This document shows positions 9,643-41,873 of a DNA stretch of 64,000 bases, in pieces. Within the stretch, counting starts at the first letter, position 1; every line of letters starts with the position of its first letter. The notes beneath the pieces were generated by a model. The model did no database searches, was not told where the DNA came from, and saw nothing but the letters and a program-made list of their open reading frames with translations. The stretch is from a virus, in IMG/VR virus record IMGVR_UViG_3300045988_158809, one strand, 5' to 3'. A program made the translations under genes and the position numbers.

Positions 9643-11187
9643 TTATTTTTGAACTATCTCATACTTAATCTTCGCCTTCTCGCCAAATGCAGCTTCCGAA
9701 GCCTGTTCCAGCAGGGGCTTGAAGTTTTCCTGAATATATGTGTAGAAGAATGCGGTAGGCACTTTAATCGTGACTGTACCGCAGCCCGTTCCGCCGTAAT
9801 CGAGAAAGCGTAGCCAGGTGTTATATTCCGTCACGGTGCAGTTGTTCTGAATCACGTCCATGAAGATTTGCCATGCCTGGAGTTCCTTTTCCGTAGGCTG
9901 CGGGGTGGGGGATGCTTCCTTCTCCTCCTGCTGCCCTTTCTGTTCCGGTGGTTCCGGGTGAGCTTCTGGCGTGCGGCTGGTGATGAAGTTCTTCAGCGAG
10001 GTGATGACGTATGCCTTTACTGAGCGCGGCTTGTATCGCTTCACCATATCGCCCAGTTCGAGCACATATTTGCGGAAGTCGTTCACCAGCTCGTCGGGAA
10101 GCATATCCGACAGGCCTTTCACGTCGGTATCGGTCAGCTTGTATTCGGTGCGAAGGAGCGTCCATGCGTCGGCAGGCTGGTTGATGCGCTTGCGCTGCTG
10201 ACGGAGTTCTTCGCCCAGTCCTGAAAGCTTTATCTGGAACTGCAGGTTTTCGGGGTTTCCCCGCTTTGCGCCATTCTTGTATAGCGGCTTGTAATCAAAA
10301 GTAAAGTCCACGAGGTTGTATTCAGAAAGTTCGTCCAGATCTTCCTTTATCGGGTCGAGCACAGTGGAACAGAAACGTGAAAATTTGGGGTAAATGTCCT
10401 TATCCACCTTCACCTTGTTTCCGTTCTTGTCAGTTTCGGTCACTTCCTCTATCAGTCCGAGGTACTTTTTAAGCTCTACAAGGTTGACTGATTTACTGCC
10501 TATATCCTTCCATCGGGTGAGGTAGATGTAGATGGAAGGGGTGCGCTTGCGCCGGCATATACGGGTGATGTGGCGAAGATGGTTCATGTATCCCAGTCCG
10601 TTTCCGAGGTCGCAAAGGTATCTCAGGGTATTAAGCGACATCTGGACTTCCACATAGTTTTCGCGCCGTGTGGTGCTTTTCTTGTATTTGTATGTGCCTC
10701 CGATTTTCTCTTTTTCGGGAATACTGATTTCGGTGAACACATTTGCGAACACGCGCCTTAGCTGACCTGTTTCGGCATCCCGGCGTATGTAAGTGACGGA
10801 CATGTTTTTCAGATTCCCGCACGTTTCCTGAAGGATATGATACGCGTCCGGCTTTACACCTATCGATGCGGTATCTACGCGCAGAGTGACTATCTTGTTT
10901 TCGGTCTGTTTATTGTCTTTCGACTTATCCAGGCACTCCGCAAGGTCGTTTTCTTCTGGCATTCCGAGTTCAGGGAAAAGTACGAGCTGACGCCCGGCAT
11001 TTCCTTTTTTCAGGTATTGGTTGAACTGGTCCTGCAGGGAGTTCATGAGTTCTATCATGATGCTTCGCTCCGTGAGGGTGAAGTCGCCTCCTATCGTGGC
11101 GTAAAGATACGGCTGCTTGATAAATTCACAGTCTTTCAGCTCGCTTACAAGCTGGCTTTTCGGCAGAATATCTTTCTGTTTTTTCAT
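9643..11187 (-). CDS. replication initiator (plasmid Rep-like N-terminal part) with C-terminal DnaA-domain-I-like module (514 aa)
   Basis: Adjacent to iterons. The C-terminal 80 aa (WQIFMDVIQNNCTVTEYNTWLRFLDY..TVTIKVPTAFFYTYIQENFKPLLEQ..KIKYEIV) mirror the DnaA N-terminal domain pattern. Confidence 0.6.
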   Translation of the reverse strand: MKKQKDILPKSQLVSELKDCEFIKQPYLYATIGGDFTLTERSIMIELMNSLQDQFNQYLKKGNAGRQLVLFPELGMPEENDLAECLDKSKDNKQTENKIVTLRVDTASIGVKPDAYHILQETCGNLKNMSVTYIRRDAETGQLRRVFANVFTEISIPEKEKIGGTYKYKKSTTRRENYVEVQMSLNTLRYLCDLGNGLGYMNHLRHITRICRRKRTPSIYIYLTRWKDIGSKSVNLVELKKYLGLIEEVTETDKNGNKVKVDKDIYPKFSRFCSTVLDPIKEDLDELSEYNLVDFTFDYKPLYKNGAKRGNPENLQFQIKLSGLGEELRQQRKRINQPADAWTLLRTEYKLTDTDVKGLSDMLPDELVNDFRKYVLELGDMVKRYKPRSVKAYVITSLKNFITSRTPEAHPEPPEQKGQQEEKEASPTPQPTEKELQAWQIFMDVIQNNCTVTEYNTWLRFLDYGGTGCGTVTIKVPTAFFYTYIQENFKPLLEQASEAAFGEKAKIKYEIVQK

Positions 11188-14753: not shown

Positions 14754-15609
14754 ATGAATTTGACAGAGAAAATAGAGTATTCAATTAATCTATTGAAAAA
14801 GAGTGAGAAAATGGCTCTTAAAATAGACCCTGAAAACGGCTTTTATTTGGCGTTTTCGGGTGGGAAAGACTCACAGGTATTATACCATTTAGCCGTAATG
14901 GGGGGGGGTGAAATTTAAAGCCCACATGAACCTTACAAGCGTAGATCCACCGGAGGTTATCAGGTTCGTAAAACAGCATTATCCTGATGTGGAACTGATA
15001 AAGCCGAAAATGAGTATCTATGATATGGCGAAGAAGAAAGGCTGTCTTCCTACTCAGAAAGTCAGATGGTGCTGTGAGGAATTTAAGGAAATGTCTGGGG
15101 CCGGCAAGGTTACGTTAATCGGAATAAGACGAGAGGAAAGTGCAAGAAGATCGAAGCGTAATGAGGTAGAAATGAATAATTATAAATTCAGCGGAAGCTT
15201 CGGTCAGTGGAGCGAACATCGCGAGAATATGGTGACTTGCGTGGGAGGAAAAGATAAGATAATTGTCAGTCCGATACTCTACTGGACGAGCCGCGACGTT
15301 TGGGAGTTTCTTAATTCAAACTACATACCTCATTGCAGTCTTTACGATAAAGGGTATAAAAGAATAGGTTGCATACTCTGTCCAATGTCAAATTATAAAC
15401 AAAAGATTAGAGAGATAAGAGATTATCCGCATGTTAAAAGAAATTGGATAAAAGCTATAGAGTGGATGATGGAAAATAAATGGACTGAAAAACGTTTAAC
15501 GGAAGATGCGGAAATGGCTTTCAACTGGTGGATAAGCGGGAAATCTTTCAAACAGTTTTATGCGGATGAATATCTGCAACAGAAGATAGATTTTGAGAAC
15601 GTAAAATGA
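14754..15609 (+). pseudogene. PAPS-reductase-family (PP-loop ATPase) gene split by a frameshift in a G9 tract
   Basis: ATG 14754 encodes MNLTEK..FYLAFSGGKDSQVLYHLAVMGGG and stops at 14916-14918. The rest (VKFKAHMNLTSVDPPEVIRF..RREES..) continues in the next frame from 14908. Removing one G fuses both parts. Confidence 0.7.
14900..14908 (+). repeat. homopolymeric G9 tract
   Basis: Counted directly: g at 14900 plus 8 g at 14901-14908. Confidence 0.95.
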
Positions 15610-30650: not shown

Positions 30651-30967
30651 TGAAAAAGACGAAAGTATATATCAGTCTGCCTATCTCAGGGCACGACATC
30701 GAGCAGGTGAAGAAACGCGCGGAGGAAGTGAAGCTGCGAATAGAGAACGACAGAGTGGAAGCCATTACCCCCTTCGACGTGTGCGACGAGAAAGACCGTC
30801 CATACTCCTACTACATGGGGCGCGACATCGAAGCCCTGATAGAGTGCGACGGCATCTATGTGTGCAACGGTTGGCACTCGTCGAAAGGCTGTCAGGCGGA
30901 AGTCCATGTAGCTGTGGTGTACGACAAGAAAATGGTGTTTGAGAGTAAAAGTAAGGTGTTTGTATGA
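30650..30967 (+). CDS. DUF4406-like / nucleoside 2-deoxyribosyltransferase-like protein (105 aa)
   Basis: VYISLPISG ... DIEALIECDGIYVCNGWHSSKGCQAEVHVA matches the pattern recalled for this family; TGATG overlap with the upstream stop. Confidence 0.5.
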   Translation: MKKTKVYISLPISGHDIEQVKKRAEEVKLRIENDRVEAITPFDVCDEKDRPYSYYMGRDIEALIECDGIYVCNGWHSSKGCQAEVHVAVVYDKKMVFESKSKVFV

Positions 30968-31887
30968 AAATAGGTTTGCTTTCGGTTGACAGCAGTTATC
31001 CCAACCTCGCGCTTATGAAGATTTCCGCATATCATAAACAACGCGGCGATGAAGTGGAATGGTACTCTCCTTTCGAGCATTACGATAAGGTTTATGCAGC
31101 AAAGGTATTCAGTTTCACTCCCGATTACGGATATTACATCAATGCTGACGAGGTGGAGCGTGGCGGAACAGGCTACGACATACAGAAATGTCTGCCAAAG
31201 GAAATTGAAACCGTGCAGCCGGACTACAGCATATGTGGCTCGATAGAAAAGAATGTGGCATACGGATTTCTCACCCGCGGCTGTCCGAACCGCTGTAAAT
31301 GGTGCGTCGTTCCTAAGAAAGAAGGTAAGATAGCTCCTTATATGGACGTGGAAGAAATAGCTATTGACGGCCGGAACAATCTTATTCTCATGGATAACAA
31401 CGTGCTGGCAAGCGATTACGGTATCAGTCAGATAGAAAAGATAGTGAAGCTGAAATATCGGGTAGATTTCAATCAGGGACTTGATGCCCGTCTGGTCACT
31501 CCCGAAATAGCCAAACTCCTTTCAAAGGTGAAATGGATAAAGCGAATCCGTTTCGGTTGCGACACTCTCGGACAGATAGACGATTGTGAAAAAGCCATAT
31601 CACTCCTGGAGAGAAACGGTTACAAAGGTGAATACTTTTTCTACTGCATTCTTCTGGACGATTTCGACGAAGCTTTCCGGCGCGTAAACCACTGGAAGCA
31701 GAGAGGCGGACGGTTCTATCCGCATTGCCAGCCATACCGCGACGTGAACAATCCTCACCAGATGATACCGCAATGGCAAAAGGATATGGCAAGCTGGGCA
31801 GACAAGAAGTGGATATTCAAGTCGTGCGAGTTTAAGGACTATGAGCCACGAAAAGGATTTAAGTGTAGTGCGTATTTTGAAAAGTAA
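30964..31887 (+). CDS. radical SAM enzyme (307 aa)
   Basis: GCPNRCKWC is a CxxxCxxC cluster motif in the usual position; ATGA overlap with the upstream gene. Confidence 0.7.
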   Translation: MKIGLLSVDSSYPNLALMKISAYHKQRGDEVEWYSPFEHYDKVYAAKVFSFTPDYGYYINADEVERGGTGYDIQKCLPKEIETVQPDYSICGSIEKNVAYGFLTRGCPNRCKWCVVPKKEGKIAPYMDVEEIAIDGRNNLILMDNNVLASDYGISQIEKIVKLKYRVDFNQGLDARLVTPEIAKLLSKVKWIKRIRFGCDTLGQIDDCEKAISLLERNGYKGEYFFYCILLDDFDEAFRRVNHWKQRGGRFYPHCQPYRDVNNPHQMIPQWQKDMASWADKKWIFKSCEFKDYEPRKGFKCSAYFEK

Positions 31888-32087
31888 GCTTTTATAAACT
31901 ACAACTCCCCCCACCCTGATTGCAGGACTTGAACTCCTCGGTTTCCGTCGCAGCCTGATAGACGATTTCAAGGGAGAGATTACAGTGATAACCGACGGAG
32001 TTATCACTACAGCAGATAGAGATTTCCTGAAAAGGAATCCTGAATATGTGGAATTTTATCCGACGCAGGAATTAGATACAGTAAATC

Positions 32088-35670: not shown

Positions 35671-36231
35671 ATGAAACAGATAAACGAAATTGACTTAAAC
35701 TCTTACCGTGACAGAGTTTATCAGAATGCGGTAAACCATGGGTGGCATGAAGAAGAGAAAAGTATTGAGCATTGGCTTTGCATGGTAATGTCCGAACTGA
35801 TGGAAGCGGTGGAAGCAGACAGGTTGGGGAAATATGCAGACCGAAACCAGTTTGAGAATTATATGAATCTGGTAGAGCGTTCAAACGACGAATTTGTATA
35901 TGCTTTCAAATATGGAATAAAAGACTCGGTTGAAGATGAGCTTGCAGATGCTTGTATCAGGCTGTTTGATATGGCTGGAGTATATAATGCTGATTTTAAT
36001 CTTCTCACTCCTACCGAATATGAAACTTCAAGATATTCAAAATTAACTTTCACGGAGTCTGTTTATAAGATGATTGAAAATCTTTGCCTTTTCCAATTTA
36101 ATATAATAGGACACCTGGACGAAATCTTTACCTTCTGCCGTTCTCGCAATATAGACATTTTCTGGTTCATCGATCAGAAGATGAAATACAACGAATTCCG
36201 GCCATTTAAACACGGTGGAAAGAAATATTAA
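35671..36231 (+). CDS. MazG-like all-alpha nucleoside triphosphate pyrophosphohydrolase (186 aa)
   Basis: MVMSELMEAVEADR ... ELADACIRLFDMAG fits the EExxE/D and ELAD..I signature of MazG-type enzymes. Confidence 0.5.
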   Translation: MKQINEIDLNSYRDRVYQNAVNHGWHEEEKSIEHWLCMVMSELMEAVEADRLGKYADRNQFENYMNLVERSNDEFVYAFKYGIKDSVEDELADACIRLFDMAGVYNADFNLLTPTEYETSRYSKLTFTESVYKMIENLCLFQFNIIGHLDEIFTFCRSRNIDIFWFIDQKMKYNEFRPFKHGGKKY

Positions 36232-36305: not shown

Positions 36306-36371
36306 CGAAAAATTTTCATTGCAATCACAGAAAATTTTTATTGCATTCGCAGAAAATTTTCATTGCAATGC
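36306..36371 (+). repeat. three tandem 22-bp repeats, each containing the palindrome GAAAATTTTC (imperfect in copy 2)
   Basis: cgaaaaattttcattgcaatca / cagaaaatttttattgcattcg / cagaaaattttcattgcaatgc. Confidence 0.85.
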
Positions 36372-36451
36372 CGGATTTACGTTTTCGCAACCTCATTTTT
36401 ACGGCGTAAAATAAACGCTTTATTTTGACATTTAGAAACAATTTGTTTACA

Positions 36452-36464: not shown

Positions 36465-36950
36465 ATGAACACGACATTTGAAAAGTCAGCAAACAGTACC
36501 GACGAATGGTACACCCCGAAAGAAATACTCGATGAGCTGGGCCCTTTCGACCTCGACCCATGTGCGCCGGTAGTTCCACTGTGGCCAACGGCTGCCACCA
36601 TGTATAATAAGAACGACGACGGACTTTCTAAGCCGTGGTTTGGCCGTGTATGGCTCAACCCTCCCTACTCCCGTCCGCTCATCGAGCAGTTTATCAACCG
36701 CATGGCGGAACACGGAAACGGCATCGCGCTTCTATTCAACCGGTGCGACAGCAAGATGTTTCAGGATGTGATTTTCAAGAAAGCATCCGCCATGAAGTTT
36801 TTGCGCCACAGAATAAAGTTCTACAGGTCAGATGGTTGTAGGGGGGGGTCGCCCGGATGTGGCAGTATTTTGATAGCTTTTGGCGATGAGAATGCAAATG
36901 TCATTCGTGATTGTAAGATAGAAGGTAAATTTGTATCACTTAAAGATTAA
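36465..36950 (+). CDS. phage Dam-type DNA N6-adenine methyltransferase (161 aa) containing an in-frame G8 tract
   Basis: DEWYTPKEILDELGPFDLDPCA and VWLNPPYS are hallmark segments of the small phage Dam family. Confidence 0.75.
   Translation: MNTTFEKSANSTDEWYTPKEILDELGPFDLDPCAPVVPLWPTAATMYNKNDDGLSKPWFGRVWLNPPYSRPLIEQFINRMAEHGNGIALLFNRCDSKMFQDVIFKKASAMKFLRHRIKFYRSDGCRGGSPGCGSILIAFGDENANVIRDCKIEGKFVSLKD
36841..36848 (+). repeat. homopolymeric G8 tract inside the Dam-type MTase ORF
   Basis: Counted directly; encodes ..CRGGS.. in frame. Confidence 0.95.
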
Positions 36951-36955
36951 TCGTT

Positions 36956-37642
36956 ATGGATAAGGAAGAAGAAGAAAGACTGGAATACAAACAGTATATG
37001 CAGGTGGTTGACGCTTGTCGTGAATTATTCAAAAAGAAATTGCAGGATTACGGTGCTGCATGGCGCATTCTACGCCCGGCGTCCGTGACCGACCAGATAT
37101 ATATCAAAGTGGCTCGCATCCGTAGCCTGCAGCTCTCCGGCGAGAACCTGGTGGGCGATTCGATAGAAAGTGAGTTTATCGGTATCGTGAATTATGGTAT
37201 TATCGGACTGATACAGTTTGAAGATGGGTTTTCTGAAAAGAATGATACGCCAATCGATTTGGCGGAGAAACTTTACGATAGTCACTTTGCAGAGTGCTTT
37301 AACGTAATGAAAAAGAAAAACCATGATTACGGCGAAGCATGGAGGAACATGCGTGTGGAGACTATCACAGATTTAATTTTGACAAAGGTGTTCCGAACAA
37401 AGCAGATTGAGGACCATGACGGGCATACTATCGCATCGGAGGGAATCCCTGCCAACTACATCGACATGGTGAATTATGCTATCTTTGCGTTGTGCCTGCT
37501 TCAGGAACGTCCGGTTTCAAGTACAGATAAATTAGATGGTGAGGAAATGCCAGATTTCTCTTTAATGCCAATTCCTCCAAGTGGGAAATATTATGCGGCA
37601 GAACGTAATCCTGAAGTAAATCCTTCCACTGAAACCAAGTAA
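36956..37642 (+). CDS. DUF1599-like protein with two internal repeats (228 aa)
   Basis: KKLQDYGAAWRILRPASVTDQIYIKVARIRSL and KKNHDYGEAWRNMRVETITDLILTKVFRTKQI are two repeats of the pattern I recall for DUF1599. Confidence 0.5.
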   Translation: MDKEEEERLEYKQYMQVVDACRELFKKKLQDYGAAWRILRPASVTDQIYIKVARIRSLQLSGENLVGDSIESEFIGIVNYGIIGLIQFEDGFSEKNDTPIDLAEKLYDSHFAECFNVMKKKNHDYGEAWRNMRVETITDLILTKVFRTKQIEDHDGHTIASEGIPANYIDMVNYAIFALCLLQERPVSSTDKLDGEEMPDFSLMPIPPSGKYYAAERNPEVNPSTETK

Positions 37643-37689: not shown

Positions 37690-38241
37690 ATGAAACTATT
37701 CAAAAAACTGAAAACCTTCTTCTCTGCTCCCCCCACCCCACTGTCAGAGGAAGCGCAGGCAGTAGAGTTTTTACGGAAGGAATCGGCACCGTACAGGGCG
37801 GTGCAGTTTGTCGACCGCATGGTCACTTCCGGAACCATATTCATCCGTCAGGAAGAGTCGGAAGTGTACATATCCACCAAATTAGTCTATCTGTATGCCG
37901 ACAAGAAACTATGGACTAATTTTCTGAAATCTGTCGGACTTTGGTTTTGTTACCAGAAGTCGCGCGAAATGTGGAGCCGCAGGTTTGTCGATGCGGAGAA
38001 TCAGGCCATCCGTGAATCCGGAAAGACACCGGAGGAACTGGGAGAAGCGGAAGTGCGTAGACTGAAATGGGAAGCTCGCCAGAAAGTAAAAGTAAGCGAC
38101 CTGTCTGCCCCGGCTCCAGGAAAATATAATTTCCTGCTCGTGTCCGAACATGACGGTTCGCCCGTGCTGGTAGGAAGTTATCAGGACGGACAAGTCACGA
38201 TGCGTAATTTTGACGAAGTGAAGGACCTGCTAAAAAAATAA
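37690..38241 (+). CDS. hypothetical protein (183 aa)
   Basis: First ATG of the TTG-started ORF 37648..38241; -7 box TATGTTTG at 37657-37664. Confidence 0.6.
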   Translation: MKLFKKLKTFFSAPPTPLSEEAQAVEFLRKESAPYRAVQFVDRMVTSGTIFIRQEESEVYISTKLVYLYADKKLWTNFLKSVGLWFCYQKSREMWSRRFVDAENQAIRESGKTPEELGEAEVRRLKWEARQKVKVSDLSAPAPGKYNFLLVSEHDGSPVLVGSYQDGQVTMRNFDEVKDLLKK

Positions 38242-38773: not shown

Positions 38774-38884
38774 TTCACAGTTTGAAACTTTGGTAAACAA
38801 ATTTAAAGATTACGAGGTAAGGGGATTTTCGGACGATTTTATGCCGGAATCCCCCTTCACCCCCAAAAAAGAAGGTTGTCCCCT

Positions 38885-39624: not shown

Positions 39625-40479
39625 ATGGCAAAAATTATTTCAGTGGTCAACTTCAAAGGGGGAGTGGCCAAATCAACCACAGCTTTTAATCTTGCGGCTG
39701 CACTTTGGATGTGCGGCAAACGTGTTTTGATAGTAGATGCAGATCCGCAGTATGAACTTACTACCCGTATCGGGTTTAATGAGCGCGATGCGGAGACTAT
39801 GTATGAATGGATGCTGTCGGAGGGTACGAAGAATGAACTTCCGGCTCCTATATATAACAGGTATGCCGGAAACGATGATTTCTGTTTTATCCCATCAAGT
39901 TCAAAGGTCTCAAACATCGAGCAGGCTCTTGTCACTCAGCCCAACCGCTTCAAGTCTCCGTATATGATATTGAGAAATCTGCTGCATAAGTATTGCGAAG
40001 ATTTCGATTATATCTTCCTGGACTGTCCACCGTCGCCGGGATTTATGAATAATCTGGCTCTTATCGCGAGTGATGAAATTATCGTGCCTGTGGAATGTGC
40101 CGGTGAGTCAATCGACGGACTTATCAAACTTGATATGACTATTCAGGACGTGAAGGAACAGGTGAATCCTGATTTGACGATAAAAGGCTACCTGCTTACC
40201 AAGTACGACGACCGTACAAAAATCACACGAAAAATCAGAGAGGAAATTTCGGAGGAGGGGTTACTCCTGAATACGAAAATCCGCTCGTCTATCAAGTTTA
40301 AGGAGGCGGGTATGTTCTATAAGAACATCTTTGAGTATGATCCGAACGGAAACGGCGCCGAGGATTATATGTCGCTGGCAGAGGAACTGTTTGATGTGAA
40401 AAGGCCGGACAACTGGAAGACTGTTTCGGCTGAGTGTTGGGAAAAGACTATTGGTTCGCAAACCGAGGACGAAGAATAA
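39625..40479 (+). CDS. parA: ParA/Soj-family partition ATPase (284 aa)
   Basis: Deviant Walker A VVNFKGGVAKSTTAFNLA, VLIVDADPQ, and Walker B-like DYIFLDCPPS. Confidence 0.85.
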   Translation: MAKIISVVNFKGGVAKSTTAFNLAAALWMCGKRVLIVDADPQYELTTRIGFNERDAETMYEWMLSEGTKNELPAPIYNRYAGNDDFCFIPSSSKVSNIEQALVTQPNRFKSPYMILRNLLHKYCEDFDYIFLDCPPSPGFMNNLALIASDEIIVPVECAGESIDGLIKLDMTIQDVKEQVNPDLTIKGYLLTKYDDRTKITRKIREEISEEGLLLNTKIRSSIKFKEAGMFYKNIFEYDPNGNGAEDYMSLAEELFDVKRPDNWKTVSAECWEKTIGSQTEDEE

Positions 40480-41063: not shown

Positions 41064-41163
41064 GTATATTTGTGCCGTATTCGACACTTTTCCCCGTTCA
41101 GGGAAAAAGTTAGGGGACGCAAGCCGTTTCGCGCCCCCTTTTCTTTTTTATATATAGGATAGT

Positions 41164-41784: not shown

Positions 41785-41827
41785 AAAACTTGAATTAAAT
41801 GTTAAAGATTTAATCTCTCACAAAAAA

Positions 41828-41873
41828 ATGGTATATAAACTTTACAAATGGTATAGATTATTTACTATCTTTG
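41828..41873 (+). promoter_or_regulatory. related module-boundary box (ATGGTATATAAAC, then AAATGGTATAGATTATTT) fused to -7 box TATCTTTG (41866-41873)
   Basis: Same GGTATAGATTnTTTA-TATCTTTG arrangement as at 12941-12961. Confidence 0.5.

Follow-up and report, generated by a model that had tools for sequence, protein, structure and literature searches.

A poly-G tract as a likely contingency locus in a virus-encoded Dam-family DNA methyltransferase gene of gut Bacteroidales viruses

Contingency loci have been described in two phage genes, T2 agt and T4 rIIA, in a 2025 preprint (Gomez, Barrick and Waters, bioRxiv 10.1101/2025.10.21.683753). The agt locus is a run of nine adenines (A9) in an alpha-glucosyltransferase gene; it reverts ∼1000-fold faster than point mutations and trades sensitivity to TgvAB against sensitivity to McrA/BC (bioRxiv 10.1101/2025.10.21.683753). 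Hypermutable poly-G tracts are known from Campylobacter phages (Sorensen et al. 2021, Cell Rep 35:109214, as cited in PMC12823448), and bacterial phasevarions are built on phase-variable Type III mod and Type I hsd methyltransferases in Haemophilus, Neisseria, Moraxella and others (review PMC13076061). Here we examine a 64,000-nucleotide (nt) stretch of viral DNA, IMG/VR record IMGVR_UViG_3300045988_158809 (the whole stretch is hereafter called the window), in which eight consecutive guanines (G8) interrupt neither the reading frame nor the product of a small DNA methyltransferase gene. We compare this gene with its relatives and with its counterpart in LoVEphage, an isolated temperate phage that is unrelated to the window lineage. 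We consider it likely that the G8 run is a simple sequence repeat (SSR) contingency locus in a virus-encoded orphan Dam-family adenine methyltransferase, which it would toggle at the population level.

The poly-G tracts of Campylobacter phages are reportedly found in genes for receptor binding and for the tail, where they change how the host is recognised. Unlike those, the tracts described here are in DNA-modification genes; the common ground is a coding poly-G tract that produces ON and OFF subpopulations. The window tract resembles T2 agt in being a homopolymer within a gene whose product modifies, or in the window would modify, the DNA of the element that encodes it, and in that a one-base change would reversibly inactivate the product. 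It differs in being poly-G rather than poly-A, in affecting a Dam-family methyltransferase rather than a glucosyltransferase, and in belonging to an uncultured gut Bacteroidales virus. The evidence differs as well, with laboratory reversion assays and a demonstrated trade-off for T2 and natural-population polymorphism here. As a likely contingency locus in a DNA-modification gene of a virus-like element, the case is of a kind already known from T2 agt. With phasevarions, it shares an SSR within a DNA methyltransferase open reading frame (ORF) and the prospect of stochastic ON/OFF switching by slipped-strand mispairing. Phasevarion enzymes, however, are chromosomal, usually part of restriction-modification systems, often switched by repeats of four or five nucleotides and recognised as such by the regulon that methylation controls, whereas the window gene encodes a small orphan enzyme on a viral genome.

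The methyltransferase gene occupies 36465..36950 on the + strand and encodes 161 amino acids (aa). Its poly-G run at 36841–36848 (+ strand; a-GGGGGGGG-t in 36840–36849) was read directly from the window as G8 followed by T, and the codons across it (TGT AGG GGG GGG TCG) specify C125-R126-G127-G128-S129, so that R126-G127-G128 form the putative slippage-prone switch and the frame stays open. An initial annotation of the window, made from its letters alone, had described just such an in-frame run in a Dam-type methyltransferase, and had expected the gain or loss of one G to truncate the enzyme about 35 aa before its end. Genes rebuilt in silico agree with that expectation. The G7 version yields 135 aa, ending ...CRGGRPDVAVF*, and the G9 version yields 141 aa, ending VARMWQYFDSFWR (...CRGGVARMWQYFDSFWR*); both lack the native last 33 residues. 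Thus, as in contingency loci, the repeat lies within the ORF and a change in its length would switch the product. The 33 C-terminal codons (36849..36947, + strand), which include the conserved SPGCGSILIAFG segment, are read in the ON frame only.

Long G runs exceed the chance expectation in this window, and the tract is non-random. A census of the whole window found two G/C runs of at least 8 nt, the G8 and a G9 at 14900–14908, and none of the remaining G/C runs (the longest being one G6 and three C6) is longer than 6 nt, as the initial annotation had noted for the two longest G runs. A first-order Markov model predicts 0.30 G runs and 0.12 C runs of at least 8 nt where 2 were observed, and extrapolation of the window's own run-length decay predicts ∼0.05; G/C runs of 5–7 nt are rarer than expected. 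The tract is also built from rare codons, GGG making up 11.7% of Gly codons and AGG 11.5% of Arg codons, and the probability of AGG GGG GGG given R-G-G is ∼0.0016.

Profile searches place the 161-aa protein among the orphan N6-adenine DNA methyltransferases of the Dam family. It matches Pfam PF05869 at 45.6 bits (gathering cut-off 28.1, E=7.8e-12, residues 10–123), phrog_111 'DNA methyltransferase' at E=3.6e-38, and the PADLOC orphan methyltransferase models. An NPPY catalytic motif is found at residues 65–68 (N65-P-P-Y68); among 30 homologues N65, P67 and Y68 are invariant and P66 is kept in at least 90%. In its small size, its NPPY motif and a Pfam score above the cut-off the protein is like the phage orphan Dam-family methyltransferases (PF05869, TIGR01712). 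It falls short of the NCBIfam TIGR01712 equivalog cut-off, with 37.3 against 97.05 bits, and on these scores it appears to be a relative of the TIGR01712 phage N-6-adenine-methyltransferases but no equivalog. No restriction-enzyme partner was seen nearby, and the viral methyltransferase likely protects viral DNA.

The part of the enzyme encoded 3′ of the tract is both conserved and, in the structure model, integral to the fold. Residues P130, G133, A138, F139, G140, N143, C150, G154 and K155 are invariant. An AlphaFold model with a predicted local distance difference test score (pLDDT) of 71 and a predicted template modelling score (pTM) of 0.74 puts the G8 tract in a loop, followed by a strand (134–139), a helix (141–148) and a second strand (154–158), all with pLDDT 82–93. 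Because the downstream residues are conserved and modelled as core elements, the 135–141 aa products, which would lack the last two core strands and the helix, are presumed inactive. A PDB sequence search with the methyltransferase returned no match, and Foldseek of the model against PDB returned only weak matches to class-I S-adenosylmethionine methyltransferases (best E=0.06), which agree with the fold but are uninformative on the C-terminus and the target motif.

Natural populations contain the truncated forms. The 90%-identity protein cluster of the window enzyme has 149 members with lengths of 161, 160, 141 and 135 aa, which are the very sizes predicted for altered tracts. At the DNA level we compared the window with 28 relatives of 94–100% nucleotide identity; their assemblies, taken from Logan, ENA, IMG/VR and JGI, represent independent samples of the human gut. 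The relatives were mostly sampled via protein variants, and the allele counts that follow are not frequencies. Two alleles are in frame, G6 followed by C (eight genes, 160 aa) and G8 followed by T (four genes, 161 aa). Five are out of frame: G7 (one gene), G8 (six) and G10 (three) followed by C, and G7 (six) and G9 (one) followed by T. A further in-frame allele, G9 followed by C (CRGGAPGCGS), is known at the protein level (P0131, P0132), bringing the total to eight alleles, seven of them seen at the DNA level in 29 genes. Pattern scans that are unbiased with respect to length returned G7T, G7, G9T, G7T and G8T.

Tract length changes on otherwise unchanged genes. In a matrix of 38 variable sites, identical haplotypes bear different tract lengths: G8 in L098 and G10 in L100–L102; G7T in L097 and G9T in L112; G7T in L089 and G8 in L096; and G8 in L090, L093 and L099 and G6 in L109. 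The tract differs in six of 13 pairs without any substitution over the 477 nt compared, and the in-frame G6 and G8T alleles each occur on several backgrounds. The repeat is thus far more variable than its surroundings. For the initial annotation's proposal of an ON/OFF switch, in-frame and out-of-frame lengths on identical haplotypes from independent samples are favorable evidence, at the level of between-sample consensus sequences. That annotation had named uniform length, together with absence of the tract from every orthologue, as grounds for giving the proposal up; we found eight alleles, and the tract is present in the close clade.

Homopolymers are error-prone and our data are mostly short-read metagenome assemblies, so the lengths might be thought to reflect sequencing or assembly errors. 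We regard such an artefact as extremely improbable. Individual alleles turn up repeatedly, in many samples that are independent of each other and with different assemblers (12 contigs for G6, eight for G10, 41 collection blocks for the 135-aa product), and they lie up to 4 nt apart. Coding A/T runs of 6–7 nt on the same contigs (A6, A7 and T6 within the same 10 kb) are invariant, the A7 at 38232 being constant in 23 of 23. Moreover, isolate-derived genomes of the LoVEphage clade differ at their own tract (G7 in BI-TP1, G9 in PV4-TP1; see below).

The methyltransferase also has 84 more distant orthologues, four from Bacteroides phages (BT19, SJC01, BT34 and LoVEphage) and 80 from IMG/VR loci, with 67–73% nucleotide and about 80% amino-acid identity to the window gene. 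At the position of the tract these carry ACT CGT GGA GAT TCG or similar (T-R-G-D-S), and their longest G run in the whole gene is 2–4 nt. The window enzyme therefore differs from ordinary PF05869 members, in which no G run exceeds 4 nt, in its G8 as well as in its score below the TIGR01712 cut-off. Going from CGT GGA GAT to AGG GGG GGG takes five base differences, every one of which extends the G run. R-G-G-S is an ordinary protein variant in intact orthologues, and because of this the tract leaves the motif undamaged; we likewise rejected the idea that the D-to-G change at residue 128 harms the enzyme, R-G-G-S-P-G-C-G-S being common in intact orthologues. A scan of GTDB genomes for the window-type tract gave 0 matches and so pointed to no host. 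On whether orthologues share the tract, which the initial annotation had proposed to check, the result is divided: the whole close clade carries it, but the distant orthologues do not.

Out-of-frame alleles have not decayed. With a normalised tract, each of the 28 full-length genes reads as an ORF of 161 codons without interruption, and a single D/E change is the only difference among the 28 relatives in their last 33 residues. Among 51 variable codons, 45 vary synonymously only, and across the 28 normalised genes synonymous divergence (pS) is 0.10 and nonsynonymous divergence (pN) is 0.0017 (pN/pS ∼0.016). Because 17 of the 28 full-length genes are out of frame and yet all are intact at this pN/pS, OFF alleles seem too short-lived to gather further damage. 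OFF states therefore appear to be transient, the signature of reversible switching and not of pseudogenisation. A gene kept intact under selection despite frequent OFF alleles constitutes indirect evolutionary evidence of reversibility. One separate inactivation was seen: two products, P0128 (109 aa) and P0135 (52 aa), occur on the same three contigs (the longest 65,557 bp) of a single sub-lineage within the close clade, in which the methyltransferase is split near residue 105 (...DVIFRKQLQ*) and its C-terminal piece is called as a gene of its own. This split is independent of the G tract.

The intact downstream frame in every OFF allele could also be read as a sign of recoding. RNA polymerase can slip on long homopolymers, and if transcription slipped or ribosomes changed frame at the G run, OFF alleles might still yield full-length enzyme, so that DNA length would tune the dose instead of acting as a switch. 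We judge this highly unlikely. Transient OFF states explain the intact downstream frame equally well, the search for structures that stimulate frameshifting turned up nothing more than a weak hairpin at 36848–36863, and the LoVEphage tract described below lies upstream of NPPY with the same ladder of lengths.

The second long run in the window is a G9 tract at 14900..14908 (+ strand), in a PAPS-reductase-like gene. The initial annotation held that this tract disrupts the gene, and the pieces agree: a 5′ fragment with the PP-loop motif SGGKDS (14754..14918, + strand) meets a premature stop due to the G9, and a 3′ fragment (14908..15609, + strand) encodes a 227-aa product, P0172, found on 8–10 contigs. 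One G fewer or two more (G8 or G11) restores the frame and joins the fragments, and the repaired protein matches PF01507 (PAPS_reduct) at E=3.6e-24. It is also similar to the BREX protein BrxP (E=5.8e-18) and more weakly to DndC; from these resemblances a DNA-modification role is plausible. Close relatives are in frame with G8 (...VMGGVKF; L116 and L117) or with G11 (...VMGGGVKF; L115 and P0153), and more distant relatives have VMSGVKF or LQAGVKF and no tract. ON and OFF products occur on identical protein haplotypes, as P0262 (284 aa) and P0263 (227 aa), and as P0138 (281 aa) and P0260 (224 aa). On the reading that we favor, the G9 tract would be another locus of this type, which switches independently of the first and is OFF in the window. 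Within the window clade, methyltransferase and PAPS states can be paired on one genome only for the window strain (ON/OFF).

LoVEphage provides a parallel case. One survey detected it more often than any other inducible prophage species, found it in ∼8% of 1,241 gut viromes and recorded its induction from several host species (PMC12629997). Its orthologous methyltransferase is annotated in GenBank as split or 'hypothetical' in several records of the clade. The LoVEphage gene has a separate poly-G tract at nt 173, in W-G-G codons directly before RIWLNPPY. In six aligned genes that are 99% identical (L004 and L120–L124; MW660583, OY731433, OY725593, OY731444, PQ571265 and PQ571302) the tract lengths are 6, 9, 8, 8, 7 and 9, and G8 alone is in frame. 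A length-unbiased pattern scan combined with GenBank records gave 45 LoVEphage-clade loci from GTDB genomes, IMG/VR and GenBank (including L125–L172), with one G6, nine G7, 21 G8, 13 G9 and one G10. Sixteen genes that are identical outside the tract span G6–G9, and the tract differs in 99 of 141 pairs without substitutions. Isolate-derived genomes differ as well, with G7 in BI-TP1 and G9 in PV4-TP1, B. intestinalis AF14-32 and B. oleiciplenus YIT 12058. Because the tract precedes NPPY, the LoVEphage OFF alleles are predicted with certainty to be null. Judged by its position, the LoVEphage tract is convergent, having arisen at another codon of the same enzyme.

The methyltransferase tract is one of several in LoVEphage. 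The genome OY725593 contains eight G/C runs of 8–11 nt, all in the early region at 52–66 kb (52091–65601), and its other G/C runs are 6 nt or shorter except for one intergenic C7 at 9722–9728. The tract-bearing genes encode the Dam-family methyltransferase, two more annotated methyltransferases, a PAPS reductase, a Lar-like restriction-alleviation protein and two hypothetical proteins. All six tracts that could be compared over five genomes (including L176–L179) vary in length; a seventh, in methyltransferase 00082/83, turned up in just one genome. In LoVEphage as in the window, the PAPS tract follows the SGGKDS PP-loop by ∼10 residues, although the two proteins are only 26% identical. The LoVEphage PAPS tract is located at about 12865–12872 in L178 (BI-TP1), and G9 is its in-frame length. 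Over 30 loci it ranges from G7 to G12, with 9 of 30 in frame, and all four ON/OFF combinations of the Dam and PAPS tracts occur on single LoVEphage contigs. Long G/C tracts thus cluster in DNA-modification and anti-restriction genes in both lineages.

Several observations weigh against reading the window tract as a contingency locus. About a third of the tract-bearing genes in the window clade are in frame, which is the expectation for neutral length drift, and the 30% in-frame share of the LoVEphage PAPS tract is likewise what neutral drift gives; in the close clade, sampling by protein-variant look-ups biases the allele frequencies. The heterogeneity is seen among the consensus sequences of different samples and not inside a single clonal population. 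In the window's own strain the consensus is methyltransferase-ON and PAPS-OFF throughout, as counted on contigs and not on independent samples: its exact 161-aa product is present on eight contigs of up to 98,163 bp, none of the eight alternative-length products of its haplotype is in the collection (0/8), and the PAPS G9 is identical in L118 and L119, 98-kb contigs without a mismatch to the window over 3.9–4.2 kb. Given the eight contigs with the 161-aa product, we rejected the idea that other copies of the window strain are OFF. In addition, the structure model is moderate (pLDDT 71) and has no significant PDB match, and the window has few hallmark phage genes, being mostly replication and modification genes.

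Many of these points would suit a non-adaptive mutational hotspot, in which a tract born by drift sits in an accessory gene that is needed only at times, slippage breaks the gene, selection or recombination repairs it, and switching itself brings no benefit. The in-frame fractions (near 1/3 in the window clade, 9/30 for the LoVEphage PAPS tract) fit such a hotspot, as do the stability of the window strain on its eight contigs and the fact that OFF is the commonest state, with the 135-aa product (P0121) in 41 collection blocks. Other evidence is harder to accommodate. Strong purifying selection on the ORF means that the function is often needed, and a costly tract could be removed by synonymous change, yet the tract persists over a clade with pS 0.10; in some alleles a T-to-G change has even lengthened it. 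LoVEphage evolved an independent tract at another codon, and there the commonest length is the in-frame G8 (21 of 45 loci). Finally, the clustering of long tracts in DNA-modification and anti-restriction genes is found in both lineages. On this balance we consider a purely mutational hotspot unlikely.

As a contingency locus, the tract would operate as follows. Strand slippage during replication would add or remove Gs far more often than substitutions arise; the outcome is seen in the alleles above, and the mechanism is our reading of it. The frame-keeping lengths (G8 followed by T, or G6 or G9 where the T became G) are predicted to give a 160–161 aa enzyme, and the other lengths 135–141 aa products without the last two core strands and helix, which conservation and the structure model suggest would be inactive. 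By analogy with T2 agt, progeny would be a mix of methylating and non-methylating genomes. Methylated DNA may evade methylation-sensitive restriction, and unmethylated DNA may evade methylation-dependent (Type IV-like) restriction or other costs, so that the state suited to the current Bacteroidales host would become enriched. The purpose, again by analogy, is probably bet-hedging between methylation-sensitive and methylation-dependent host defences.

The surroundings of the gene are rich in modification and replication functions. The methyltransferase has as neighbours a MazG-like pyrophosphatase (phrog_9236; 35671–36231), a DUF1599 'nucleotide modification associated' protein (36956–37642) and ParA (39625–40479); farther upstream are a radical-SAM protein (30964–31887) and a second methyltransferase, PF01555 (27510–28292). 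A Rep-like initiator with DnaA_N and Rep3_C matches is encoded at 9643–11187 on the − strand, and the window also contains an exonuclease (phrog_255) and a weak tail-fibre match (phrog_1807). IMG/VR holds relatives (L089 and L111), and contigs of 98–104 kb recur. Megablast of 6 kb of the window against a plasmid collection and of 15 kb against GenBank phages gave no match, and tblastn of a 1194-aa protein against phages gave only a 25% TOPRIM match. The element is virus-like and belongs to an uncultured gut Bacteroidales lineage. Because a Rep-like initiator and ParA occur alongside the modification genes, the ∼98-kb element may be phage-plasmid-like in lifestyle.

In the whole window, GATC occurs 62 times where 217 are expected (observed/expected ratio (O/E) 0.29), a depletion that is consistent with restriction pressure at a Dam-type site and gives only a hint as to the putative target of the enzyme. 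CTAG is nearly absent (three observed, 65 expected), and 4-nt palindromes other than these two have an O/E of 0.77–1.09. The methyltransferase is preceded by a 233-nt gap; at 36309–36374 within it, three 22-nt repeats in tandem (AAAATTTTCATTGCAATCACAG, 86–100% identical) may be an operator or regulator-binding array, and TAtaTTTG, which resembles the Bacteroidetes −7 promoter element, lies directly ahead of the ATG at 36465. A few short runs besides the poly-G tracts vary among the relatives (41144–41149, 41822–41828, 31907–31912 and 38851–38855). These are mostly intergenic (T6 at 41144, A7 at 41822), the two C runs not having been checked against genes; the T6 at 41144 ranges from 5 to 8 nt in 11 contigs.

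Phage contingency loci have only recently been recognised. This work adds a case from natural populations in the human gut, in which the virus's own DNA methyltransferase would be switched, a convergent tract that affects another codon of this enzyme in the highly prevalent LoVEphage, and the clustering of long G/C tracts in anti-restriction genes. In the literature searched, we came across neither a phase-variable methyltransferase encoded by a phage nor a description of poly-G tracts in LoVEphage. The finding would also be relevant to annotation, such genes now being filed as split or hypothetical. More tentatively, it is possible that gut Bacteroidales viruses, both the ∼98-kb lineage and LoVEphage, carry sets of independently switching poly-G loci in DNA-modification and anti-restriction genes (Dam-family, C5 and further methyltransferases, a BrxP/DndC-like PAPS reductase and a Lar-like gene). 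Their bursts would then be combinatorial epigenetic mixtures, fitted in advance to hosts that differ in restriction and in methylation-dependent defences, and in lysogens the switching methyltransferases of the set would act as a virus-borne phasevarion on the host chromosome. Because LoVEphage-clade isolates exist in culture, the question of switching is directly testable. Methylomes vary greatly within Bacteroides, where prophages carry many of the methyltransferases (PMC10333322). Should the switching be adaptive, it would bear on host-range prediction and phage therapy design, and it would give gut phages a simple way to cope with diverse Bacteroides methylomes and restriction systems.

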